A program made the position numbers and the translations under genes. Under the pieces are notes generated by a model. That model saw only the letters and a program-made list of their open reading frames with translations. It had not been told where the DNA came from and ran no database searches. 64,000 nt of DNA from a bacterium (GTDB taxonomy: Bacteria > Actinomycetota > Thermoleophilia > Solirubrobacterales > Solirubrobacteraceae). The DNA lies in contig JAJPKQ010000027.1 in the NCBI GenBank assembly GCA_021323635.1, positions 9,563 through 73,562 on the forward strand, in the 5' to 3' direction. Shown here piece by piece: positions 39,304-50,773 of this stretch (within the stretch, counting starts at the first letter, position 1; each line of letters starts with the position of its first letter).

Positions 39304-39909
39304 TCAATACGGCGGCTGCGCCGCCTGCCAGTCGCCGAGCACGCGGAAGGCATCCCAGAAGCGCTGCTTGGCCGAGCGCTCGTCCAGGCACTCATCGATG
39401 TTCGGGACAAACAGCGCGTCGATCATCGGCGTCAGCTCCTGAACGTGGCCCGGGGTCGCGGCAAGGGCGTGGCTGAGCGGGATCTGTAGGTCGTTCACGG
39501 TCGCCAGCGCCGGCTCTCCCATCAGCACGACGATCCTTGGCGAGATGATCGCGATCTCCTCGAGCAGGCGGCGCACGCAGGCAGGGTCGGCGAGCGTCGG
39601 GTCCTCCAGCGGGCACTTGACGCAGAGCGTCCCATAGACGGTCAGTGGATCGATCGCGAGGCGCTTGAAGGACTTCATCAGGGCGTTGCCCGAGCGGCCG
39701 TAGAAGGCGACGCCCTCTTCGATCTCCGAGGGCCTGGCGGAATGCTTGATCAGCATGATGTCCGCCTGCGGATGGCCGGAGCCGAGCACCGGCACCAGCG
39801 CCCCGCGCGGGCAGCCTGCGCAGGCGTGGATCTCGTGCGCGAGCGCGTTCAGCTCACGGATCGCGCGATCGAGGTAGCGCTCGCGGATCTCATCGTTGGT
39901 CTGCGGCAT
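39304..39909 (-). CDS. Uracil-DNA-glycosylase-superfamily (family 4-like) Fe-S protein with divergent active site
   Basis: CAGC...GSGHPQADIMLI...AFYGRSG...VKCP...C...IVVLMGEPA give the UDG4 architecture; GEAPG and HPS motifs are replaced. Confidence 0.75.
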   Translation of the reverse strand: MPQTNDEIRERYLDRAIRELNALAHEIHACAGCPRGALVPVLGSGHPQADIMLIKHSARPSEIEEGVAFYGRSGNALMKSFKRLAIDPLTVYGTLCVKCPLEDPTLADPACVRRLLEEIAIISPRIVVLMGEPALATVNDLQIPLSHALAATPGHVQELTPMIDALFVPNIDECLDERSAKQRFWDAFRVLGDWQAAQPPY

Positions 39910-39995: not shown

Positions 39996-41981
39996 TCAGC
40001 GCGCCTGCCGGCTCGCCTCGCGCAGCCGTCGCAGCTGCGGGCCGCCGGCGCGCGTCTGGATCAGCTTCAGCGCCTGCACGTAGAGGAGGCTCTTGGGGCT
40101 GGCGATGATCTCGGCTTCTGCGAGCGCGGAGAGGAACTGCTGCGGTCCCTCGAAGTCGGGCATGCGCACGCGCACCGACCCCAGCCCCTGGGGAACATGG
40201 GCGTCGGAGCCGGCCCCGGCGAGGATGCGGTACTTGGCGGCAAAGCGCGCCGCCTCCTCGTTGAAGGCGGAGATCGCCACGCGCGCGTTATAGACCTCGA
40301 TCGCGTCGATCTGCGCAAGCAGCGGCAGCAGATTGGCGTAGTCGGGAACGGGGTGCAGGCGATCGAAGGGGTGCGGGATGTAGACGATGCCGCCCTGCGC
40401 CTTGATCTGAGCGATCGTCTCGGCGAGGCTCAGGCCGCGCGGGATCCGCTCGCTCAGAAAGAGCCCGATCACCTCCCCTTCAGAGGCGGTCTTGACCTCC
40501 TCGCCGACGATCACCTTCACGCCGTAGCGCTCGCCGAGCTCGGCTGCGGCGAGCGCGCCCGAGATCTCGTTGTGGTCGGTCACGGCGATGGCGCCCAGGC
40601 CGCGCTCGCGTGCGGTCGAGAGCAGCACCTCGACGGGCGTTGCGCAGTCCGGGGAGTGGTCGGTGTGCATGTGCAGGTCGACGTCGATCGCCTTTGTGCG
40701 CGCCTGCGCGCGCAGGGGCACGGGCGGAGCGTGGCGGCGCGCGATCAGCTCTTCGTAGATCGCCTCGGTCTCCTGCGCTGCGCGCTGCCAGCTGTGCGCG
40801 GCGGCAAACGACTTTCCGGCCCGCGCGAGGCGCTCGCGCAGAGGCCGATCGCCGATCAGCCGCTGCAGCTGCGCAAGCAGCCCCGCGAGGTCGCCTGGCT
40901 CAAAGAGCAGCCCCCGCTCCCCCTCCCCCAGCAGCTCCTCGTGGAGAGGGACGCGGGAGGCGAGCACAGCGGCTCCTGAGCCGAGCGCTCGCAGCAGCCC
41001 GGGATGGTCCGGAGCGGCGCCGCTTGAGGCGAACACGGCGATGTCGGCGCCCTCGCAGAGCTCTTCGCGCTCGGTGGCCGGCACGCTTGTGAGGCGCACG
41101 CGCTCGCGCAGGGCACCGCGCAGCGTCGCGAGCGCACGCTCAGGGCGATCCTCGATGGTCGGCGTCGCGACGAGCGCCTGCCAGCGCAGGCGCTCGGGCA
41201 GGCGGCGCAGCGCGCGCAGATGGAGGCGCAGCGCGGCGCGCTCCTCGGCTGCGGCGTAGAGGATGCGCGTCGGGTCCGTCGCCTGCCCGCGGGCGTCGGC
41301 TGCCTGGCGAGCGGAGCCGGTCGCCAGCGGCCAGAGCGCCGAGGCGCTCTGTGGCACGCCCTGCTTGCCCTCAGAGCCGCGCAGGCTCCATCCGGGTGCG
41401 ACGATTTCGCAGCGCACGGCGAGCAGCTCTGCGGCGGCGGCAGCGGCCGCGGCAGAGGGGGCGCTTGCCGCATCGATGCGCCCGAAGAGGCTGATCGACT
41501 CGCCGATCCGCCGGCTGAGCTCGCGCAGCGGCGTGCCCGCGGCGAGGTGGAAGGTTGCGGTGTTGAGCGAGCGCGAGTGGCGCAGCGCCGCGCTTGCGGC
41601 ACCGGCCGGCAATGGGTCGTGGACGTGGAGGAGGTCGATGGCGACCGCTGCGAAGAGCTCCTCGAGCGCCCGGCCCTGCTCTATCGAAACCGTGGCGCCC
41701 GGGGCGCGCGGGCGCGAGGGCGCGCCGCTGCGCACAGCCTCTGCGATTGCGATGAAGCCCTCGCTGTCGGCCGCCTGGGCAAGCGTGGCGATCTCAGCGT
41801 GAGCACGCAGCGCGGCGCGGGTGGCGCGGACGCGATTGGCCGAGCGCGAAGGAGCGATCGCGACCGCCGTGTGTCCGCGCGCGCGCAGCGCCTCGGTCAG
41901 ACGCGCGATGTGCGCGTTGACCGGGTGCTCGCTCTCGATCGGGTACGGGCTGACGTGGGCGATGGCAAGGCGGCTCTCCAT
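39996..41981 (-). CDS. Fusion: PimA-like GT4 domain (degenerate) + PHP-family metallophosphoesterase
   Basis: N-terminal IAHVSPYP...L...GH...IAPS and LLHVHDP (GT-B fold); C-terminal PHP motifs DLHMHT, VTDHNE, GEEV, IPHPFD, AGSDAH. Start trimmed to MESRL (GATAAT upstream). Confidence 0.85.
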   Translation of the reverse strand: MESRLAIAHVSPYPIESEHPVNAHIARLTEALRARGHTAVAIAPSRSANRVRATRAALRAHAEIATLAQAADSEGFIAIAEAVRSGAPSRPRAPGATVSIEQGRALEELFAAVAIDLLHVHDPLPAGAASAALRHSRSLNTATFHLAAGTPLRELSRRIGESISLFGRIDAASAPSAAAAAAAAELLAVRCEIVAPGWSLRGSEGKQGVPQSASALWPLATGSARQAADARGQATDPTRILYAAAEERAALRLHLRALRRLPERLRWQALVATPTIEDRPERALATLRGALRERVRLTSVPATEREELCEGADIAVFASSGAAPDHPGLLRALGSGAAVLASRVPLHEELLGEGERGLLFEPGDLAGLLAQLQRLIGDRPLRERLARAGKSFAAAHSWQRAAQETEAIYEELIARRHAPPVPLRAQARTKAIDVDLHMHTDHSPDCATPVEVLLSTARERGLGAIAVTDHNEISGALAAAELGERYGVKVIVGEEVKTASEGEVIGLFLSERIPRGLSLAETIAQIKAQGGIVYIPHPFDRLHPVPDYANLLPLLAQIDAIEVYNARVAISAFNEEAARFAAKYRILAGAGSDAHVPQGLGSVRVRMPDFEGPQQFLSALAEAEIIASPKSLLYVQALKLIQTRAGGPQLRRLREASRQAR

Positions 41982-42235
41982 GGCATCTCGATTATCGCGC
42001 GGATCGCACGCTGGCTGTGGCGACCGTCGCTTGCCGCCCCACATCATGCTGCGTGGAGTCCAACCGCTGTCCAAAGCGAGCGCACGAGATTCCGGCCATC
42101 CGGCCCTACGACTTCTGAGTGCTCGCTGCGATCTTGCTTGGTGCGCTACGCGGAAGCAGCGGGCAGACGGCGCCCCGCCCGGCGGCCGCGCAGCGCCCAA
42201 GCTAAAACCACCCACGAGCAGGAAGGGCATTGCAG

Positions 42236-43237: not shown

Positions 43238-44485
43238 TCAGGCCCGAGTCGCGCCGCGCGCTCGGCGCGGCGCCTTGGAGGGGCGTGCGGGCGCCTTCGC
43301 ACCGCGCGCGTAGCGGGCGATGAAGCGCTCGGTCTCCGCGCGCGCCTCGTTGTCGGGGCGCTGGTGCTTGGGCGACTTCATCAGGTAGGAGGAGGGACCG
43401 TCGAGCTGGCCGCCGACGCCGTGGTTCAAGGCGAGCTTGCAGCAGCGCACCGCATCGATCACGATCCCCGCGGAGTTGGGCGAGTCCCATACCTCGAGCT
43501 TGAGCTCGACGTTCAGGGGCACGTCGCCGAAGGCCTGGCCCTCGACGCGGATGTGCGCCCACTTGCGGTCGGTCAGCCAGGGCACGTAGTCGGAGGGGCC
43601 GATGTAGATGTCCTCCGCGGGCAGCTGCTCGTCCATGATCGAGGTGACCGCGTTGGTCTTCGAGATCTTCTTGGACTCAAGGCGCTCGCGCTCGAGCATG
43701 TTGTAGAAGTCCATGTTGCCGCCGACGTTCAGCTGCGAGGTGCGCACCATCTTCACGCCGCGGTCGGCGAAGAGCCGCGCGAGCGTCCTGTGCACGATCG
43801 TCGCCCCGACCTGCGACTTGATGTCATCGCCCACGATCGGCAGCCCTGCGCGGGCAAAGCGCCGCTCCCAGTACTCCTCGCGGGCGATGAACACGGGGAT
43901 GCAGTTGACAAAGCCGCAGCCGGCCTCGAGGATCTGCTCGACGTACCACTTGGTGGCCTGCTCGGAGCCGACTGGGAGGTAGGAGACGACCACATCGGTG
44001 CGCGTCTCCTTCAGGATCGAGACGATGTCGGCGGTCTCGCCCGGCGCCTTCGTGATCTTCTCCTTCAGGTACTTGCCGAGCCCGTCGTGGGTCATGCCGC
44101 GGTGCACCGGCACGCCGAGCTTCCTTGGCACCTTGGCAAAGCGGATAGTGTTGTTCTGCCCGGCCCAGATCGCCTGCCCGAGATCCTTGCCCACCTTCGC
44201 CCGGTCGATGTCGAAGGCGGCGGTGAAGACGATGTCGCGGACGTGGTAGCCGCCGAGGTCCACGTGCATCAGCCCGGGGACGCGCTCGGAGGGGTCGGCG
44301 CCAGCGTAGTAGTGGACGCCCTGGACGAACGCGGAGGCGCAGTTGCCGACGCCGATGATCGCCACCCGCACCTGCTCGCTCTGGTGGCGCGAGCGCCCGT
44401 TCTGCACCGCGGGCAGGTGCTGCAGCGGCTGCTGCACAGCGTGTGTGCCGTTGGCGGTCGCGTTGTCGAGGCTGCGCTCTGCCAT
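43238..44485 (-). CDS. ino1: myo-Inositol-1-phosphate synthase (actinobacterial type)
   Basis: [64 protein letters not shown]. Confidence 0.97.
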
Positions 44486-44517: not shown

Positions 44518-45294
44518 TCACGCGCCGGGGGAGGCTGCTTCGCGCAGCAGCTGGCGACGGACGTGGGCGATCCGCTGGCCGACGGTCAGCACGGCAAGCC
44601 CCGCCAGGACGTAGATCGCCGGTTCGAGCGCGCTGAAGTGCGCAAGCGAGGCGCCGCGCGCAAAGAGCAGGCCGATCGCGATGATCACGACGCGCAGCGG
44701 CCTGCTTGCCAGGCCGACCTTGCACTCCACGCCCAGCGCCTCCGCGCGGGCGCGGGTGTAGGAGACCATCAGCGAGGCAAGCACCGCGATCACGACGGCT
44801 GCGACAGCGCCCGATCGGCCTTCGGCGGCAAAGCGCGCGGCGACCGCTGCCAGCACGACCCCCTCCTCGATGCGGTCGAGCGTCGAGTCGAGGAAGGCGC
44901 CGAACGGCGTTCCCTTGCCGGACATGCGCGAGTAGGTGCCATCGAGCGTGTCCATGATCGAGCCGATGATGAAGGTGATCCCGGCAAGGAAGAAGAGCTG
45001 CTCGAGCACGAGCGCCGCCGCGGCCAGGTTGAGCGCCAGGCCGCTCAGCGAGATCGCGTTGGGGGTCAGTCGCGATTCGATCAGGCGCTCGCGCACGAGC
45101 GCCCGCGCAGGGGGGCGCTCCGCGGCGCTGCGGCCCCGCGCACGCAGCGAGCCTGCGGTGGCCCGTCCGCCTGCGCGCAGCCTGGCACCTGCACGCTCAT
45201 GCGAGCGCGCGCGACGCCGCTGTGTTCGGCGCGCCCTGGCGGTCGCCGTCCGGGAGGGAGTCGCGCCGCGGTCGGATGAGGGGGGACGATCCAT
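44518..45294 (-). CDS. pgsA: CDP-alcohol phosphatidyltransferase, probable phosphatidylinositol-phosphate synthase
   Basis: LTPNAIS, signature DTLDGTYSR...GAFLDSTLDRIEE, VSYTRARAEALG; adjacent to ino1. True start may lie downstream of 45294. Confidence 0.88.
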   Translation of the reverse strand: MDRPPSSDRGATPSRTATARARRTQRRRARSHERAGARLRAGGRATAGSLRARGRSAAERPPARALVRERLIESRLTPNAISLSGLALNLAAAALVLEQLFFLAGITFIIGSIMDTLDGTYSRMSGKGTPFGAFLDSTLDRIEEGVVLAAVAARFAAEGRSGAVAAVVIAVLASLMVSYTRARAEALGVECKVGLASRPLRVVIIAIGLLFARGASLAHFSALEPAIYVLAGLAVLTVGQRIAHVRRQLLREAASPGA

Positions 45295-45315: not shown

Positions 45316-46125
45316 TTAGCCGGTTGTGCTCGTCGCCGGGGTCAGTGGCTTGTAGAGCGTCTGCCAGGCGCGCTCCGCCCAGCCGGCGAGCAGACGCGCT
45401 AGCGCTGCGGTGATCACGCCAAGGATCGTATCGAGGATGAAGTGGTTGCCGGTCGCAATGATGACGAAGGCGATCAGCAGCGGGTAGAGGACCCAGAGCG
45501 CGCGCACGAGCAGCAGCTTCGTCTCTCGTGCCAGCGGCCAGCCGATGATCAGCGCAAAGGCGATATGCATCGAGGGGATCGCGGCATAGGGGTTGAAGAA
45601 GTCGGAGAAGAGGGCGCTGGACTGGGACATCTTCAGGCCCGTCACATCGGAGACCGAGTCGACGAAGCCCCACTCGGGAAGGAAGCGCGGCGGTGCCGTC
45701 GGATAGAGGTAGTAGCCGATCAGCGCCAGCCCCAGCGCTATCAGCAGGGTGTTGCGCACCGTGACGAAGACGGGGTTGCGGTAGAAGTAGATGAACAGAA
45801 GCGCAGCGACGGTGACGGTGAACTGCGCGTTTACGTACAACCAGCCGGCGATCGCCATCAGCGTGTGGGAGCCCGAGGCCCAGGTCTGGACGGCGGGCTC
45901 GACGAAGATGTGCACCGAGCGCTCGAGCGAGATCACTTCGCGCGCATGCTGGAATGCCGCGGTGCCGTCGTTCTCGACCACGCCGCGCACGACACGGTAG
46001 GCGACGTAGGCAAGGGCGAAGTAGCCGACCTGTCGCAGGAGATCGACGGGGCTGGCGGGAAAGCCCGGCCAGCGTATGCGCTTGAGCGGGGTGCGCACCC
46101 GCGGGAGCCTAGCGCAGGCCGCCAC
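45316..46125 (-). CDS. PAP2_3 / AUR1 (inositol-phosphoceramide-synthase-like) membrane phosphotransferase or phosphatase
   Basis: YPTAPPR, YAAIPSMH, ATGNHFILD catalytic His/His/Asp arrangement; about 6 TM helices. Confidence 0.82.
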   Translation of the reverse strand: MAACARLPRVRTPLKRIRWPGFPASPVDLLRQVGYFALAYVAYRVVRGVVENDGTAAFQHAREVISLERSVHIFVEPAVQTWASGSHTLMAIAGWLYVNAQFTVTVAALLFIYFYRNPVFVTVRNTLLIALGLALIGYYLYPTAPPRFLPEWGFVDSVSDVTGLKMSQSSALFSDFFNPYAAIPSMHIAFALIIGWPLARETKLLLVRALWVLYPLLIAFVIIATGNHFILDTILGVITAALARLLAGWAERAWQTLYKPLTPATSTTG

Positions 46126-47938
46126 CTGCGCCGCGCGCCCCCGGCGAGCGTGCAGTCGGCCCCCGGCAGCTGCGATGGCTGTCGCCCAGCAGCGCGCCGA
46201 GTGAGAAGCTGACCGTGATCCGCAGGGTGCCCGCGGCCGCCGCTTCGAGGATCGTCCAGTTGCCCGCCGCGCGAACGAGACATCCCGAGCCCTGCGCGAG
46301 CGTCCAGTAGCGCGAGAAGTGGAAGGCCAAGCGGTAGCGACCCGGATGCGGAGCGCTCACAAGCAGCGACTGCGGGCCGAGCTCAAGCAGCCGCGCCGGC
46401 GCCTGCACCAGCGGCGCCGCGTGCTCGACCGCGTAGAGGCGCCAGTCCCGGTTGCGCCAGAGCCGGTGCAGATAGGGCAGGCCGGCGCGGATCAGCCTGC
46501 CCTCGGGGCGCCCGGCGGAGTCCAGGCGCGCCTGCGGGAGGGCGACGTAGGAGACGGCGTTTTCTAAGAGCCAGCGCCGGTAGGCGGAGGCGCTCAGCTG
46601 CGGTCGGTAGAAGAGGGCGTTGTAGCGGGTGTCAAGCTGGCGCTCCCAGCCGCGCGCGAGCATCAGGCCGCCGCCGGGCAGGTAGGCAGCCTCCCAGTGC
46701 GCTCCGGTCATCGGGATCTCCACGCGCGTCGGCCTGCCGCGGCTGAGGCGCTGTAGCTCTGCGATCAGCGGCGCATAGAAGGTGCGCTTCACGGTGCGAT
46801 CGCCGGCCAGGGCAAGCTGGTCGTCGATCGCGGTTGCAAGCTGCCAGTAGAGCAGGAGCGGGGCGATCGCCGCGGCGATCGCAATCCAGGCCCGCGGCCT
46901 CAAGCTGCGCGCGATCGCAGCATTCCAGAGGCAGCCGAGCAGGAGCGGGGCACCGAAGAGCGCGCCCACGCGCACCGCGTTGCCGCCGAAGGGGCTCTCG
47001 ATCAGAAACGATCCGACCAGCAGGATCGCGTAGAGGAGCGCGCCGATGCGGATTGTGCGGTGCAGCCAGTGCGGCAGGTGCCCGTGGGGCAGCAGCATCG
47101 CGACCGCGAGGCCTGCTGCGAGCTCAGGCCAGAAGGCGCCCGCCACAAAGGGCTCATAGCCGCCTTCGGGGAAGGCGAGCACGAGCGCGGCGATCGGCGC
47201 CAGCGAGGCTGAGATCAGCAGCAGGGCGACCGCGAGCGCGTGGCGCGGGCACTCATCTGATCGCCTTGCGAGCCGGCGCGGTGATCGCGTGAAGGAGGTC
47301 AGGCGCCCCGCGAGCACACTGAGCGCCAGCGCGCCGCCGGCAAGCGCCAAGAAAACGCCCGCGACCGGGCTTGCGGTCGCAGAGAGCACGCAGAGCGCGC
47401 CGGCGGCCATGAGGGAGAGCAGCCGCGCTGGGCCTGCGGGCGGCGCATGGGCGAGCGCAACCAGCGCGAGCAGCCCGATCGCGCTGCCGACATCAAAGGG
47501 GACGCGACCGGAGGGCAGCTCGGCGCAGAAGCCGAAGGCAAAGCTGAGCGCGGCGGCGCGTGCGGCGCCGGCTGTTGAGAAGGCGCGCAGCGCAAGCAGC
47601 GCAAAGCCGCCCGCCGCGACCACGGCGGAGAGCGCAAGCAGCATGCGCAGGCCGATCGCCGCGCCCAGTGCCGGCACGATGATCGAGTAGGCAAGCAGGT
47701 AGTGGCCGGCATACCAGCCCGTGTCATAAAGCAGGAGGCCGTAGCGGGAGAAGAGGTCGGCGCGGTAGGTGGCGGCGGCGAGGTCGCCCGATGGCGGCGA
47801 GACCGCCAGATAGATGGCGGCGAGCAGGATCGCAAGCGCGAGCGCGGCTGCAACCGTCAGCCGCGGGGAGCCGATTGCGCGCGGGCTTGGGGGCGGCAGG
47901 GTTGCGGAGGCTGGCTCGGCTGTCTGCAGATGTGACAT
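46109..47938 (-). CDS. Polytopic membrane protein, possible GT-C-type glycosyltransferase
   Basis: 10 or more hydrophobic segments, acidic first loop SGDLAAATYRADLF followed by WYAGH, and a soluble C-terminal domain (RVEIP, ARGWERQLD). Fold assignment is an inference. Confidence 0.5.
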   Translation of the reverse strand: MSHLQTAEPASATLPPPSPRAIGSPRLTVAAALALAILLAAIYLAVSPPSGDLAAATYRADLFSRYGLLLYDTGWYAGHYLLAYSIIVPALGAAIGLRMLLALSAVVAAGGFALLALRAFSTAGAARAAALSFAFGFCAELPSGRVPFDVGSAIGLLALVALAHAPPAGPARLLSLMAAGALCVLSATASPVAGVFLALAGGALALSVLAGRLTSFTRSPRRLARRSDECPRHALAVALLLISASLAPIAALVLAFPEGGYEPFVAGAFWPELAAGLAVAMLLPHGHLPHWLHRTIRIGALLYAILLVGSFLIESPFGGNAVRVGALFGAPLLLGCLWNAAIARSLRPRAWIAIAAAIAPLLLYWQLATAIDDQLALAGDRTVKRTFYAPLIAELQRLSRGRPTRVEIPMTGAHWEAAYLPGGGLMLARGWERQLDTRYNALFYRPQLSASAYRRWLLENAVSYVALPQARLDSAGRPEGRLIRAGLPYLHRLWRNRDWRLYAVEHAAPLVQAPARLLELGPQSLLVSAPHPGRYRLAFHFSRYWTLAQGSGCLVRAAGNWTILEAAAAGTLRITVSFSLGALLGDSHRSCRGPTARSPGARGAGGGLR

Positions 47939-48124
47939 CGGGCGCCCGATTATCGTGCAGCAAGGGGATGTGCTCGCTGGTGGGATTGCGCGGCTCGGGC
48001 AGGGGGCGATCACGCGTCGGCGTAGCGCCGCGCGAGCCTTGTGGCGGTTTGCAGCTCAGCAGTATGGCCCGCCACGAACCTCCGGGTGGCGTGGCGACAC
48101 AGTCAATGTGAAAGGATCGCAACG

Positions 48125-49864
48125 ATGGGATTGAGGCTGCCGGCAGGTGCCCGGGAGGTCTTCTTCGGCGCTGCGCTCGGCCTGGGTGTTGGTGCGGCCT
48201 ATCTGGCACCGGACGCAGTTGCGAGCGGACATTAGCCGAGGCAAGTTGGAGCGCAGATGCTGACCGTCCGTGCAGGCGCCGTGGCGGCGCCGCTCCCCGA
48301 TGGGAAGATACGCATCGTGGGTGGTGAGACGAAAACCAAGAAAAGTCAAACGTCTACAAAGAGCGCCGAAGTCTACAACCGTTCCACCAAGAGCTTTGAA
48401 GCGCACAGCGCACAGGCGACAGCATCGCGCGATTACGCAGCCGGCGCCGTGCTGCCGAGCGGCGAGGCGCTGATCGTGGCCGGCTACGACACTGAATCCA
48501 AGCAGCAGCTGAAGAGCGCCGAAGCGTAAAACCGGTCAGCGCGCGCTTTGAAACGCTAGCGAGCGAAGCGCTGGCAGCAAGGGCGTATGCGACTGCAGCG
48601 GCGCCGGGGCGGCAAGGCTCTGAATGCCGACGGGCATGGCAGCAACGGCAAGGAGGAAGCGAATCTGGGGACGGCAGAGTTCTACAACCCGAGCACCGAT
48701 GCGTTTGAACACATCGCCGGCGAACCGCAGGTAGTAGGCGGCGAGAATCCCGCAGCGGCCTTGATCCGCGAAGAAAAGTGCTGATCGCAGGCGGCTGCGG
48801 TCAAAGCTATCGCAGTAGCGCTGATCGTTACAACGCCAAGACCGGCAGCTTGAGACGCCCGCCGGCATCGGCAAACTGACCGGGCGTCGGTATGGCGCCT
48901 GGTCGCTTGCCTCCGAAGCCGGCGAAGCGTTCATCGGCTCCGGCTACAGCTCTTCTTATCTGCGCAGCGTCGATTCAACTGACGGCAAGACGCTCACGCT
49001 CTCGAGGGCTGCACGGCGGCCGCTTGAAGAGCGCTGGGACGCGGTGGTGGCGCCGCTGTCAAAGAGCCCGTGGCTGATCGCAGGTGGTATCGCGCAGTAA
49101 ACGGAATTGTCGGCATTGCCGAGGAAATCGCGGCGGTCGTTCCAATGGCCTCGATGATCGGCGGCGGCTTCGGAGCGGTGGGCGTCGGCGAAAGCGCTGG
49201 TGCGCGCACGATCACCGTCGGCAACAGAGGGCAAGGTCAACTGAGGATCAGAGGCGTGCTGCTCAGTGGGGCCGATGCCGCTGACTTCAAGCTCGACGGA
49301 GGTCTCTGCGTCGGGCTCTCGGTTGCCGCGGGCGACAGCTGCGTGCTCACGGTCAGCTCCGCGCCTGCCACCACAGGAGCTGAGACCGCCACGCTGAGGC
49401 TTGAAGACAACGAGCGGTCGCGTGCCTCGATCACGCTGACCGGCAGCGGCTGTGCGCCGGGCTCTGCTGCGGGAGCGCTGCGCCTGCGGGGAGCAGCGGG
49501 GCCGACCGGCGCCGCGGGCCCAACGGGCGCCACCGGGCCTGCCGGGAAGGTCGGGCTCCTCACCTGCTCGGTTGGCGTCAAGAAGGTCGGGCGGCATGGG
49601 CACGTAGGCAAGCTGCGCGGGCGCCACTGCACGACAAAGACGGTGAGCGGCACCGCGAAGCTCACCCTCACCGGGCCGCGGGTCGCTCTGCGTCATGGCG
49701 GTCATCTCTACACGCACGGCGAGGAGATCGCGCTCGGGCACGGTCGCAGCGAGCTGGTGCTTGCGCGCGGCGTAGCTCTGCAGCCCGGTCGCTTCACCCT
49801 GGTCTCGCGCATCCGCCGCCACGGCCGGCTCGTGCGCAGACGCATGCAGATAGAGATCCGGTGG
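48125..49864 (+). pseudogene. Decayed secreted kelch-repeat + Ig-like (choice-of-anchor D) + collagen-like protein
   Basis: Signal-peptide-like start with in-frame TAG 48233; kelch units (LPDGKIRIVGG...SAEVYN, LPSGEALIVAG...SAEA*, KVLIAGG) broken by stops and frameshifts; ITVGNRGQGQL...CVLTV...LTGSG; GxT collagen triplets; original stop apparently lost. Confidence 0.8.
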
Positions 49865-50101
49865 GCGCCTCACCTCGGCCCAAGCGCCGGGGCCCTGAGC
49901 GGGCCCCGGCGCGCCCGCGGCAGCGCGCCTCCCAGCCCTTGCCCTCAGGGTCGACGCTGCTCTCCTGAGCGAAGCCTGCAGAAAAGATCAGGGCACGCTC
50001 CCCGATGCGAGCACGGATGCCATCGGCGAGGATCGGCCAAGTTGCAAGTAACCGATCCAAGGAGGGCTTCGTTGCACCCGATCTCCGGTCTTCTCCGTCA
50101 G

Positions 50102-50773
50102 ATGCGCCGACGCTTCACATTCGCCAACGTCGTGGCCGTGATCGCGCTGCTGTTCTCGATGAGTGGCGCTGCGATCGCCGCACGCCATTACCTGATCACC
50201 TCAACCAGGCAGATCAGCCCGAAGGTGCTGCGCGAGCTGCGCGGTCGCAACGGCCAGCGCGGAGCTACTGGTCAAAGCGGAGCAGCGGGCCCGCAGGGCG
50301 CCACAGGCTCTCAGGGAGCGGCCGGCCCGCAGGGCGTGACCGGGCCGCAGGGGCCTGCAGGGCCGGGGCTGATGGCTTACGCCTCCAATAAGGGAGGCTG
50401 TGCGCTCGAAAACGAACTAGGCAATTTCTGCTACCCGTCATCCCCTTCCTCGGGCTCGTTTACGGCAAGCGCCAACGGCACCTGTCTCGTGAGCGCGAGT
50501 GCCCAGATCGAAGAAGTCTCGGGTGTCACGTCCAACGGACCGTTCTTCCGGATCGCGATCAAGGAAGGCGCCACGGAGAAGAACGACGGGCTCTATGGCC
50601 ACTACTTCGAGGGCTCCGCCGGCGTGGAATCCATCGACCTTTCGCGCACGATGCAGGTCGCGGTCAGCGCGGGAAACACCTATGAGTTCGGTGCCTACTT
50701 CGGTGCTCCCACAGGACCCTGGCATGGCAAGTTCGCCGACTACCTGGTCACCTACACCTGCTTTGCGACATAG
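50102..50773 (+). CDS. Secreted collagen-like (Gly-X-Y) protein
   Basis: MRRRFTFANVVAVIALLFSMSGAAIAA leader, about 13 Gly-X-Y triplets, beta-rich C-terminal domain. Confidence 0.78.
   Translation: MRRRFTFANVVAVIALLFSMSGAAIAARHYLITSTRQISPKVLRELRGRNGQRGATGQSGAAGPQGATGSQGAAGPQGVTGPQGPAGPGLMAYASNKGGCALENELGNFCYPSSPSSGSFTASANGTCLVSASAQIEEVSGVTSNGPFFRIAIKEGATEKNDGLYGHYFEGSAGVESIDLSRTMQVAVSAGNTYEFGAYFGAPTGPWHGKFADYLVTYTCFAT

Follow-up and report, generated by a model that had tools for sequence, protein, structure and literature searches.

A PimA-like pseudo-glycosyltransferase fused to a PHP phosphoesterase in Thermoleophilia: a candidate phosphatidylinositol-phosphate phosphatase

The locus and the fusion protein

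The stretch of DNA analysed here, which we call the window, comprises 64,000 nucleotides from a soil bacterium of the Solirubrobacteraceae (Actinomycetota, class Thermoleophilia; assembly GCA_021323635.1, contig JAJPKQ010000027.1, positions 9,563 to 73,562 of the forward strand). It contains a gene for a 661-residue protein (P0002) in which a glycosyltransferase family 4 (GT4) domain resembling the mannosyltransferase PimA is joined to a PHP phosphoesterase domain, and this gene lies in a cluster with inositol-lipid genes (Table 1). A first-pass annotation of the window had proposed exactly such a fusion, with a degenerate glycosyltransferase (GT) and an intact phosphoesterase, and had put it forward as a candidate for the phosphatase that converts phosphatidylinositol phosphate (PIP) to phosphatidylinositol (PI). 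The fusion itself is confirmed by the open reading frame (ORF), the Pfam domains and the homologues, and since it is present in all 121 genomes of our class sample, which spans 65 genera, it is not a chance artefact. The protein begins with MESRLAIAHV; a longer ORF starting from an ATG at 42230 was rejected because its 83 extra N-terminal residues have no counterpart in any homologue. The Pfam matches all lie above the curated cut-offs (Glyco_transf_4 at residues 21-189, Glyco_trans_1_4 at 241-378, PHP at 435-503 and PHP_C at 574-623), as does a match to Glycos_transf_1. More than 120 full-length homologues are found at about 50% identity. An AlphaFold2 model built with 57 homologues reaches a mean local confidence (pLDDT) of 83 and a global fold confidence (pTM) of 0.84, and no transmembrane segments are predicted from the sequence of the protein.

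Table 1. The fusion gene, the parts of its product and the neighbouring genes, in positions of the window.
Feature	Position	Strand	Basis
GT4(PimA-like)-PHP fusion gene, P0002, 661 aa	39996..41981	(-)	ORF and translation, Pfam, homologues
GT-B N-terminal (acceptor-side) Rossmann domain, aa 1-200	41382..41981	(-)	Pfam Glyco_transf_4, PimA sequence and fold match
GT-B C-terminal (donor-side) domain, aa 236-415	40737..41276	(-)	Pfam Glyco_trans_1_4, alignment to PimA
Former E-x7-E loop, aa 319-331 (SSGAAPDHPGLLR)	40989..41027	(-)	PimA alignment, homologue conservation
PHP + PHP_C phosphoesterase domain, aa 431-640	40062..40691	(-)	Pfam, NCBIfam, invariant ligands, model
C-terminal helix and strongly basic tail, aa 629-661	39999..40097	(-)	Homologue alignment
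VapC PIN toxin, 132 aa	42525..42923	(-)	Pfam PIN
VapB-like antitoxin, 81 aa	42920..43165	(-)	ORF list
ino1, myo-inositol-1-phosphate synthase	43238..44485	(-)	Pfam Inos-1-P_synth
PIP-synthase-type (PIPS) CDP-alcohol phosphatidyltransferase	44518..45294	(-)	Pfam; PDB 6wm5, 6h53, 5d91, E 1e-19 to 1e-20
PAP2_3 (AUR1/IPC-synthase-like) membrane protein	45316..46125	(-)	Pfam PAP2_3 6.5e-39
Polytopic membrane protein, ~10 hydrophobic segments and C-terminal soluble part, no Pfam family	46109..48013	(-)	
UDG-superfamily gene downstream of the fusion	39304..39909	(-)	Pfam UDG, synteny

A PimA-like domain with a predicted loss of the donor site

PimA is the GDP-mannose:phosphatidylinositol alpha-1,2-mannosyltransferase. 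It is the best sequence match in the PDB of the N-terminal 420 residues of P0002, and it also heads the Foldseek comparison of the P0002 model with the PDB (4n9w/2gej, E 2e-16, TM 0.78-0.82), ahead of MshA, BshA and sucrose-phosphate synthase. The HEP, FH and PG motifs of the PimA type are kept. By sequence and predicted fold alike, the GT domain is derived from PimA.

The residues with which PimA holds its sugar nucleotide have fared differently. In a HMMER alignment to M. smegmatis PimA, the segment 'hlGGEsfgivlvEa' pairs with 'ssGAApdhpgllRa' of the query, so that E274 is replaced by Ala and E282 by Arg; both glutamates of the E-x7-E motif are gone (A-x7-R), just as the first-pass annotation had read. 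The equivalents of R196 and K202 are alanines in the alignments both to PimA and to the PimA-like protein of the same genome, and the glycine-rich loop (G15-G16 in PimA) reads HP. With the Gly-Gly loop, R196, K202 and both glutamates replaced, no sugar-nucleotide site is expected, and on these alignments the site is lost from the GT domain of P0002. The C-terminal half of PimA, used as a tblastn query at E 1e-3, detected five other GT4 genes of the genome and left the domain of the fusion undetected.

This is a feature of the order and not of one protein, as the E-x7-E motif is absent from all 57 aligned homologues. The loop that has taken its place is itself conserved across the order (S319 and G321 are invariant; P324, P326 and R331 are kept in at least 90% of the 57 homologues), which implies that the GT-like domain is retained under selection and is not drifting. 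In its N-terminal half, the arginines R55, R104, R134, R137, R157 and R168 are invariant and common to the family.

The phosphoesterase domain and its basic tail

The C-terminal part of the protein scores well above the Pfam cut-offs for PHP (PF02811, 50.5 bits against 26.4) and PHP_C (PF13263, 44.4 bits against 21.3). The claim that its metal ligands (HxH, DH, E, H and DxH) are complete is borne out: the motifs DLHMHTDHS, TDHN, GEEVKT, PHPFDRLH and GSDAH are intact, H437, H439, D441, H442, H470, E494, E495, H537, H543, D593 and H595 are invariant across the 57 homologues, and D469 is conserved in at least 90% of them. These ligands align with the motif region of PDB 3e0f, a TrpH-like phosphoesterase, which is also the best sequence match of the domain in the PDB. 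In the same alignment the mean pairwise identity of the PHP domain is 82%, compared with 59% and 54% for the two GT halves, and its pLDDT is mostly above 90. All this points to an active metallo-phosphoesterase.

Named families describe this domain only approximately. The NCBIfam model for CehA/McbA metallohydrolases (NF038032) is a near miss, scoring 72.1 bits over residues 434-636 where the cut-off is 80, and some database records label homologues of the fusion accordingly. The models for 3',5'-nucleoside bisphosphate phosphatase (NF041577, 47.2 against 400 bits) and for RNase AM/RNM (NF047791, 34.5 against 375 bits) are far from their cut-offs. Behind the domain, the net charge of the last 25 residues averages +8.5 across homologues, and a similar tail is found in stand-alone PHP relatives and in PHP proteins encoded in Chloroflexota operons.

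The inositol gene cluster and the phosphatase step

In bacterial PI synthesis the product of ino1 supplies inositol phosphate (Ins-P), PIP synthase (PIPS) makes PIP, and a phosphatase releases PI. Genes of this pathway lie upstream of the fusion: on one strand, from upstream to downstream, follow the polytopic membrane protein, the PAP2_3 protein, PIPS, ino1, VapB/VapC, the fusion and the UDG-like gene, and the polytopic gene, whose product looks GT-C-like to us, overlaps the PAP2_3 gene by 17 nt. The ino1-PIP synthase cluster of the first-pass annotation is thus found on the strand of the fusion, with the qualification that a VapBC pair separates ino1 from the fusion here. The two toxin-antitoxin genes overlap by 4 nt and are followed by about 540 bp of non-coding DNA before the fusion begins; such a pair between ino1 and the fusion was seen in no related locus examined, and in relatives the end of ino1 usually lies about 100-250 bp ahead of the fusion. 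The VapBC insertion therefore splits an otherwise conserved operon in this genome.

That the PIP phosphatase has long been without an assigned gene in mycobacteria, as the annotation held, agrees with the literature, in which the actinobacterial enzyme is still called 'yet-unidentified' (for mycobacteria; PMC6506517) and, in a 2026 preprint that proposes EphE without biochemistry, 'long-sought' (bioRxiv 10.64898/2026.07.15.738315). In Bacteroides thetaiotaomicron the PIP phosphatase is BT_1525, a member of the PgpA family whose deletion accumulates PIP-DAG, and its cluster (BT_1522-1526) also encodes a myo-inositol-phosphate synthase (MIPS), a PIPS and an AUR1-like PAP2 protein (PMC9246714). 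PgpA (PF04608) has no match in the genome of the window, which is 97.5% complete, nor in any of the 121 class genomes, while controls including B. thetaiotaomicron do match.

Another local candidate, absent from the first-pass proposal, is the PAP2_3 protein, whose gene adjoins PIPS in the window and in 56 of 80 related loci. It is encoded in 102 of the 121 class genomes and is missing from most of the family labelled f5 in our sample, including 16 genomes that have an intact fusion and ino1; in the seven f5 loci that were fetched, PIPS was confirmed beside the fusion. PAP2_3 as the general PIP phosphatase is therefore made less likely by the genomes that lack it, most of f5 and some of f4, though it may still serve in the genome studied here. 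A second PAP2_3 gene lies on another contig of this genome (C5:16802-17347, in a 487-aa open frame) and has the higher Pfam score, 173 bits against 135 for the copy in the cluster. An IMPase-family gene is also present elsewhere in the genome, so the role of a soluble inositol monophosphatase is not obviously vacant. Literature searches found no paper on this fusion or on a PHP-family lipid phosphatase, and to our knowledge no lipid phosphatase of the PHP family has been described.

Conservation of the fusion and its neighbourhood

A collection with one genome per species holds more than 550 fusion loci. The 80 listed belong to Solirubrobacterales, Conexibacter, Patulibacter, Thermoleophilaceae or to less precisely named actinobacterial or uncultured metagenome-assembled genomes, and the polytopic membrane gene is syntenic in 50 of them. 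In the class sample ino1 occurs in 114 of 121 genomes, and the block PIPS-(ino1)-fusion-UDG-like is present in every family. The linkage of the fusion to ino1 and pgsA, on which the first-pass proposal leaned, thus holds class-wide, and on this point the proposal stands. Beyond the class, a sample of 401 genomes of the phylum has fusion-sized reading frames in Thermoleophilia only; elsewhere it has only stand-alone PHP proteins of 220-270 residues. The PHP domain alone, searched against a set of 5.8 billion proteins, yielded only truncated copies of the fusion and no new context. One genome of the window's own family (G311, L169 5459-11661) has a cluster of two tandem polytopic membrane genes, PIPS and an intact fusion.

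Lineage-specific fates of the two halves

The motifs of 44 fusions of the class were tabulated in an alignment with the canonical PimA-like protein of the window's own genome. The window's family (f1) is represented there by two copies, the order-wide loss of E-x7-E resting on the 57-homologue alignment. In f1 all four GT donor residues are lost and the PHP ligands are intact. The f5 fusions keep the Arg, the Arg/Lys and E/D-x7-E ('LGGEW......E') together with intact PHP ligands, and the only significant GT match of an f5 fusion in the PDB is PimA (3e-16). In f8 and f6 the donor residues, E-x7-E among them, are partly kept and the PHP ligands are again intact; the GT half of the f8 fusion is 35-42% identical over its full length to the PimA-like protein of the window's genome, and three f8 genomes yielded no PimA-like gene other than the fusion. 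The reverse situation is met in f4, in which Arg and D/E-x7-E are kept in 16 of 19 sampled copies and the PHP domain is dead in all 19. There HxH has become RxR or similar and DH has become SP or AP, and in one copy (G388, L130 8600-10405), where the damage is directly visible in the sequence, GSDAH has become GSGAC; further f4 copies are found in L132-L149.

The degenerate GT is therefore a true description of this order and does not apply to the fusion as such, for f5 keeps R196, K202 and E-x7-E. The same retention suggests that the ancestor was probably a bifunctional PimA and phosphatase. The simplest history that these motifs allow would be an ancestral bifunctional fusion whose GT chemistry was lost in the window's order after a separate PimA-like gene had taken over.

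Such a gene does exist. On another contig of the genome (C13:9269-11665) a 799-aa frame encodes a canonical PimA-like GT4 domain, with the motifs PYSWSYPGGV, ARKG and GESFGMVLTE, fused to LPG_synthase_TM; its full-length relatives across the order are 47-63% identical, in frames mostly of 770-880 residues. The LPG_synthase_TM part is of the MprF flippase-like kind, and the protein may join the synthesis of a glycolipid to its flipping.

Unfused partners in Chloroflexota and the PHP phylogeny

We searched 151 Chloroflexota genomes with the PHP profile and with the PIPS of the window and compared the positions genome by genome. At least 27 of them have an unfused PHP gene of this subfamily no more than 5 kb from PIPS, where we would expect about one genome by chance (a rough estimate of our own and not a computed value). 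Among the 20 such regions that were fetched, PHP stands directly upstream of a PimA-like gene and on the same strand as PIPS in 13, of which 11 carry ino1. The arrangements on the same strand are ino1...PHP-PimA-like-PIPS (seven regions), PIPS-ino1-(about 2 kb)-PHP-PimA-like (four, with a fifth that has these genes at the same spacing on the opposite strand), PHP-PimA-like-PIPS (two) and PHP-PIPS (two); in the other four, PHP is convergent to PIPS-PimA-like, adjoining it in all but one, where the distance is about 3.7 kb. The PHP proteins of these operons keep all ligand motifs, and their tails are similarly basic and amphipathic. The partnership of PHP and PimA is thus met as a fusion in Thermoleophilia, with the GT first, and as adjacent genes in Chloroflexota, with the PHP first.

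One of these operons was annotated (L182, 4988-10754) and reads PIPS, ino1, two PatA-type Lip_A_acyltrans genes, PHP and a PimA-like GT4. Because two PatA-type genes stand between ino1 and PHP, the operon amounts to the mycobacterial pgsA1-patA-pimA set with ino1 and PHP added, and by its predicted products it holds the full set of early PI-mannoside genes, in a phylum other than Actinomycetota.

In a tree of the PHP domains, the Chloroflexota operon proteins form a clade of their own (support 98/89), parted by a long and fully supported branch from the clade of the fusion and the other stand-alone PHPs. The PHPs of the fusions cluster together with moderate support (82/65), the dead f4 copies included. 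An association with the PI pathway is consequently seen in at least two PHP clades; it either goes back to the ancestor of the subfamily or was gained more than once. Among the actinobacterial stand-alone PHPs outside the class, a PAP2_3 gene 3-7 kb away in four of five loci of families f37/f77 was taken as family synteny, a TPP enzyme and TldD/PmbA intervening. On three of four contigs with a PHP gene of the Dehalococcoidia type, formyltransferase, HAD and PfkB genes come next, a conserved neighbourhood that is not lipid-related.

A candidate PIP phosphatase and its alternatives

We propose, with a probability of about 0.6, that the fusion of the window is a PIP 3-phosphatase of the PHP family in which a pseudo-PimA domain serves for docking. 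Several observations lead to this proposal. The PHP domain is intact and more constrained than either GT half; the block of PIPS, ino1 and fusion recurs in every family of the class; f5 pairs an intact-looking GT with an intact PHP, which by the Rosetta-stone argument links the two activities; PgpA is absent from the class and PAP2_3 from the 16 f5 genomes; Chloroflexota show the same partnership of PHP, PimA-like protein and PIPS; the PIP phosphatase is the one unassigned step of the pathway; and a separate PimA-like gene exists in the genome. The protein would be a peripheral-membrane enzyme of the PI and PI-mannoside pathway, held to the cytoplasmic face of the membrane by the PimA-like domain and the basic tail, with the GT domain acting as a docking scaffold for membrane and inositol lipids. 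In the mechanism put forward by the first-pass annotation, the inactive GT domain would also present PIP to the PHP domain. Its PHP site would remove the inositol 3-phosphate from PIP made by the adjacent integral-membrane PIPS, and the resulting PI would be released to the separate PimA-like and AUR1-like enzymes. In the ancestor, the fusion probably catalysed two steps in succession, from PIP to PI and on to the first mannoside PIM1, the mannosyl transfer having apparently been taken over in the window's order by the separate PimA-like gene.

We would extend this only tentatively, and with a little less than an even chance of being right, to the PHP subfamily with PHP_C and the amphipathic basic tail as a whole. 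It may be the PIP 3-phosphatase of Thermoleophilia and many Chloroflexota, non-orthologous to the PgpA type, which began in Thermoleophilia as a bifunctional PIP phosphatase and PI mannosyltransferase able to pass PI directly to PimA and then diverged by lineage, leaving two intact-looking halves in f5, an active PHP beside a pseudo-PimA docking module in the window's order and a dead PHP in f4.

A number of findings weigh against the assignment. Unrelated genes (UDG-like, TrmA, OTCase) are syntenic in the class as well, and the UDG-like gene follows the fusion at about 70-230 bp in every family, even those with only 45-53% identity; since flanking unrelated and housekeeping genes are syntenic too, linkage within the class is by itself weak evidence. 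Within f1, the 97%-complete single-contig assembly of G311 has the fusion and PIPS without ino1. The f4 regions with a dead PHP keep PIPS (18 of the 19 fetched) and ino1 (nine), and three f4 genomes also lack PAP2_3, so that another PIP phosphatase must exist in the class; PgpA was rejected for this part, being missing from the whole class. Several Chloroflexota have a strong PIPS match without this PHP, and the Chloroflexota operon PHPs sit in a separate clade, which means that function cannot be transferred by simple orthology. The closest stand-alone relatives (42-50% identity) lie away from inositol genes: neither PIPS nor ino1 was found in any of the eight contexts of the Chloroflexota stand-alone PHPs closest to the fusion, four of which follow xseA-xseB, and neither is near the closest actinobacterial stand-alone PHPs outside the class (L112-L125), which lie close to TldD/PmbA or B12-radical-SAM genes. 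In the Dehalococcoidia type (L172, L173, L175 and L176; 7001-7680) the PHP gene and the end of xseB share about 10 nt in three of four cases, and in the fourth the PHP gene lies at most 8 nt behind xseB. Finally, among the PHP relatives that NCBIfam and the PDB name, the nearest characterised ones act on nucleotides or RNA and not on lipids, namely 3',5'-nucleoside bisphosphate phosphatases and a 5'-3' exoribonuclease. The PIP phosphatase candidacy put forward by the first-pass annotation thus gains from the class-wide linkage to ino1 and PIPS and from the unfused PHP in Chloroflexota operons with ino1, PIPS and a PimA-like gene, and it is held back by the dead f4 domain, the PAP2_3 candidate and relatives that act on nucleotides or RNA.

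These points give room to other explanations. The fusion might belong to the inositol-lipid pathway and act on another substrate, such as inositol-1-phosphate, which would yield free inositol, or a glycosylated PIP or inositol phosphate, with PIP converted to PI by PAP2_3 or a further enzyme. The PAP2 superfamily includes lipid-phosphate phosphatases, and the position of the PAP2_3 gene against PIPS would suit that role, as would the persistence of PI-pathway genes in f4 beside a dead PHP. Pairs of a GT and a phosphatase, moreover, usually glycosylate a phosphorylated acceptor and then dephosphorylate it, and sucrose-phosphate synthase and MshA are among the fold matches. We nevertheless hold this to be unlikely: PAP2_3 is missing from the 16 f5 genomes and from three of f4 and belongs to a family of AUR1/IPC-synthase-like transferases (PMC9246714), an IMPase-family gene is already there for soluble inositol phosphate, a dead GT in this order means that no glycosylated intermediate would come from this protein, and the PimA-like partner points to a lipid and not a soluble substrate. 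An MshA-type reading, with a GlcNAc-Ins-P synthase joined to its phosphatase, was set aside, since both sequence and fold are nearer to PimA and the donor-site residues are gone.

That the PHP has kept a TrpH-like role on nucleotides or RNA, as a pAp phosphatase or nanoRNase, or that it clears the GDP and CMP by-products of PimA and PIPS, would reduce the locus to by-product clearance or inherited synteny. The best PDB and NCBIfam matches act on such substrates, the closest Dehalococcoidia relatives overlap xseB, the basic tail could bind nucleic acid, and the mycobacterial PI-mannoside operon carries a Nudix hydrolase. This seems to us improbable, given scores of 47 against 400 and 34.5 against 375 bits, a fusion to a PimA-derived domain maintained in every one of the 121 genomes, and independent Chloroflexota operons of PHP, PimA-like gene, PIPS and ino1 in several gene orders, which synteny alone can hardly explain. 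Least credible of all, and close to being dismissed, is a GT domain still at work through unconventional donor binding, which would make the protein bifunctional like the f5 version; the confidently predicted GT-B fold (pTM 0.84), the 54-59% identity of the domain and the conservation of the replaced loop speak for it, against which stand the simultaneous replacement of five PimA sugar-nucleotide positions (the Gly-Gly loop, R196, K202, E274 and E282), a canonical PimA-like gene elsewhere in the genome and the order, and the failure of the C-terminal half of PimA to find this domain at a threshold that finds five other GT4 genes.

Relation to known systems

Both superfamilies are already known, as is the conversion of PIP to PI in Bacteroides by an unrelated enzyme. 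What is new is a PHP subfamily as the candidate for this step, the architecture of a pseudo-PimA fusion and a division of the two activities that differs by lineage. With M. smegmatis PimA (GT4, PDB 2gej/4n9w) and the mycobacterial pgsA1-patA-pimA operon the fusion shares its genetic partnership with PIP synthase; it differs in an additional C-terminal PHP phosphoesterase of 230 residues with a basic tail and in the replacement of the donor-site residues of PimA. In mycobacteria ino1 lies elsewhere than this operon, whereas here it is part of the cluster.

Compared with TrpH/YciV-type PHPs (PDB 2yb1, 3e0f; RNase AM, 7ug9), the metal-ligand motifs are the same, but the fusion has the PHP_C extension and the amphipathic basic tail, scores far below the equivalog cut-offs and has lipid enzymes, not nucleic-acid enzymes, as genomic partners. 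A GT4 joined to or partnered with a phosphatase is also found in sucrose-phosphate synthase and phosphatase and in MshA with the MshA2 phosphatase of mycothiol synthesis. There an active GT works ahead of the phosphatase and on a phosphorylated acceptor, whereas in P0002 the donor site appears lost; the phosphatase of the sucrose system has the HAD fold and that of the fusion the PHP fold. Inositol phosphate chemistry is common to MshA and the fusion, yet PimA and not MshA is its closest relative. The BT_1525 cluster contains the same parts (MIPS, PIPS, an AUR1-like PAP2 protein and one phosphatase gene), and the reaction proposed here, PIP to PI, is the same (PMC9246714). There is no homology between the two phosphatases, the candidate here being a PHP-fold metalloenzyme fused to a pseudo-glycosyltransferase, and BT_1525 is backed by a knockout in which PIP-DAG accumulates, whereas the fusion is known from its sequence and gene context. 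Knockout evidence for a PIP phosphatase is available for the PgpA type of Bacteroides only (PMC9246714).

If the proposal is true, a concrete PHP-family candidate backed by two phyla makes the step from PIP to PI directly testable by a simple assay, lipid head-group dephosphorylation is added to the chemistry of the PHP superfamily, and the fusion becomes a natural and clear case of a glycosyltransferase that has given up catalysis and serves to dock lipid and membrane. The class would then offer natural controls in its three states: two intact halves, a dead GT or a dead PHP. The mycobacterial case is not solved by the fusion itself, which is confined to Thermoleophilia in the 401-genome sample of the phylum.

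A minor observation in the window

A 567-aa ORF on the plus strand (49070-50773) matches the Pfam Collagen triple-helix repeat at 3e-8. It overlaps a minus-strand ORF (48956-49873) and failed the coding filter based on GC content at third codon positions (GC3), and it may be either spurious in GC-rich DNA or a genuine Gly-X-Y repeat protein.

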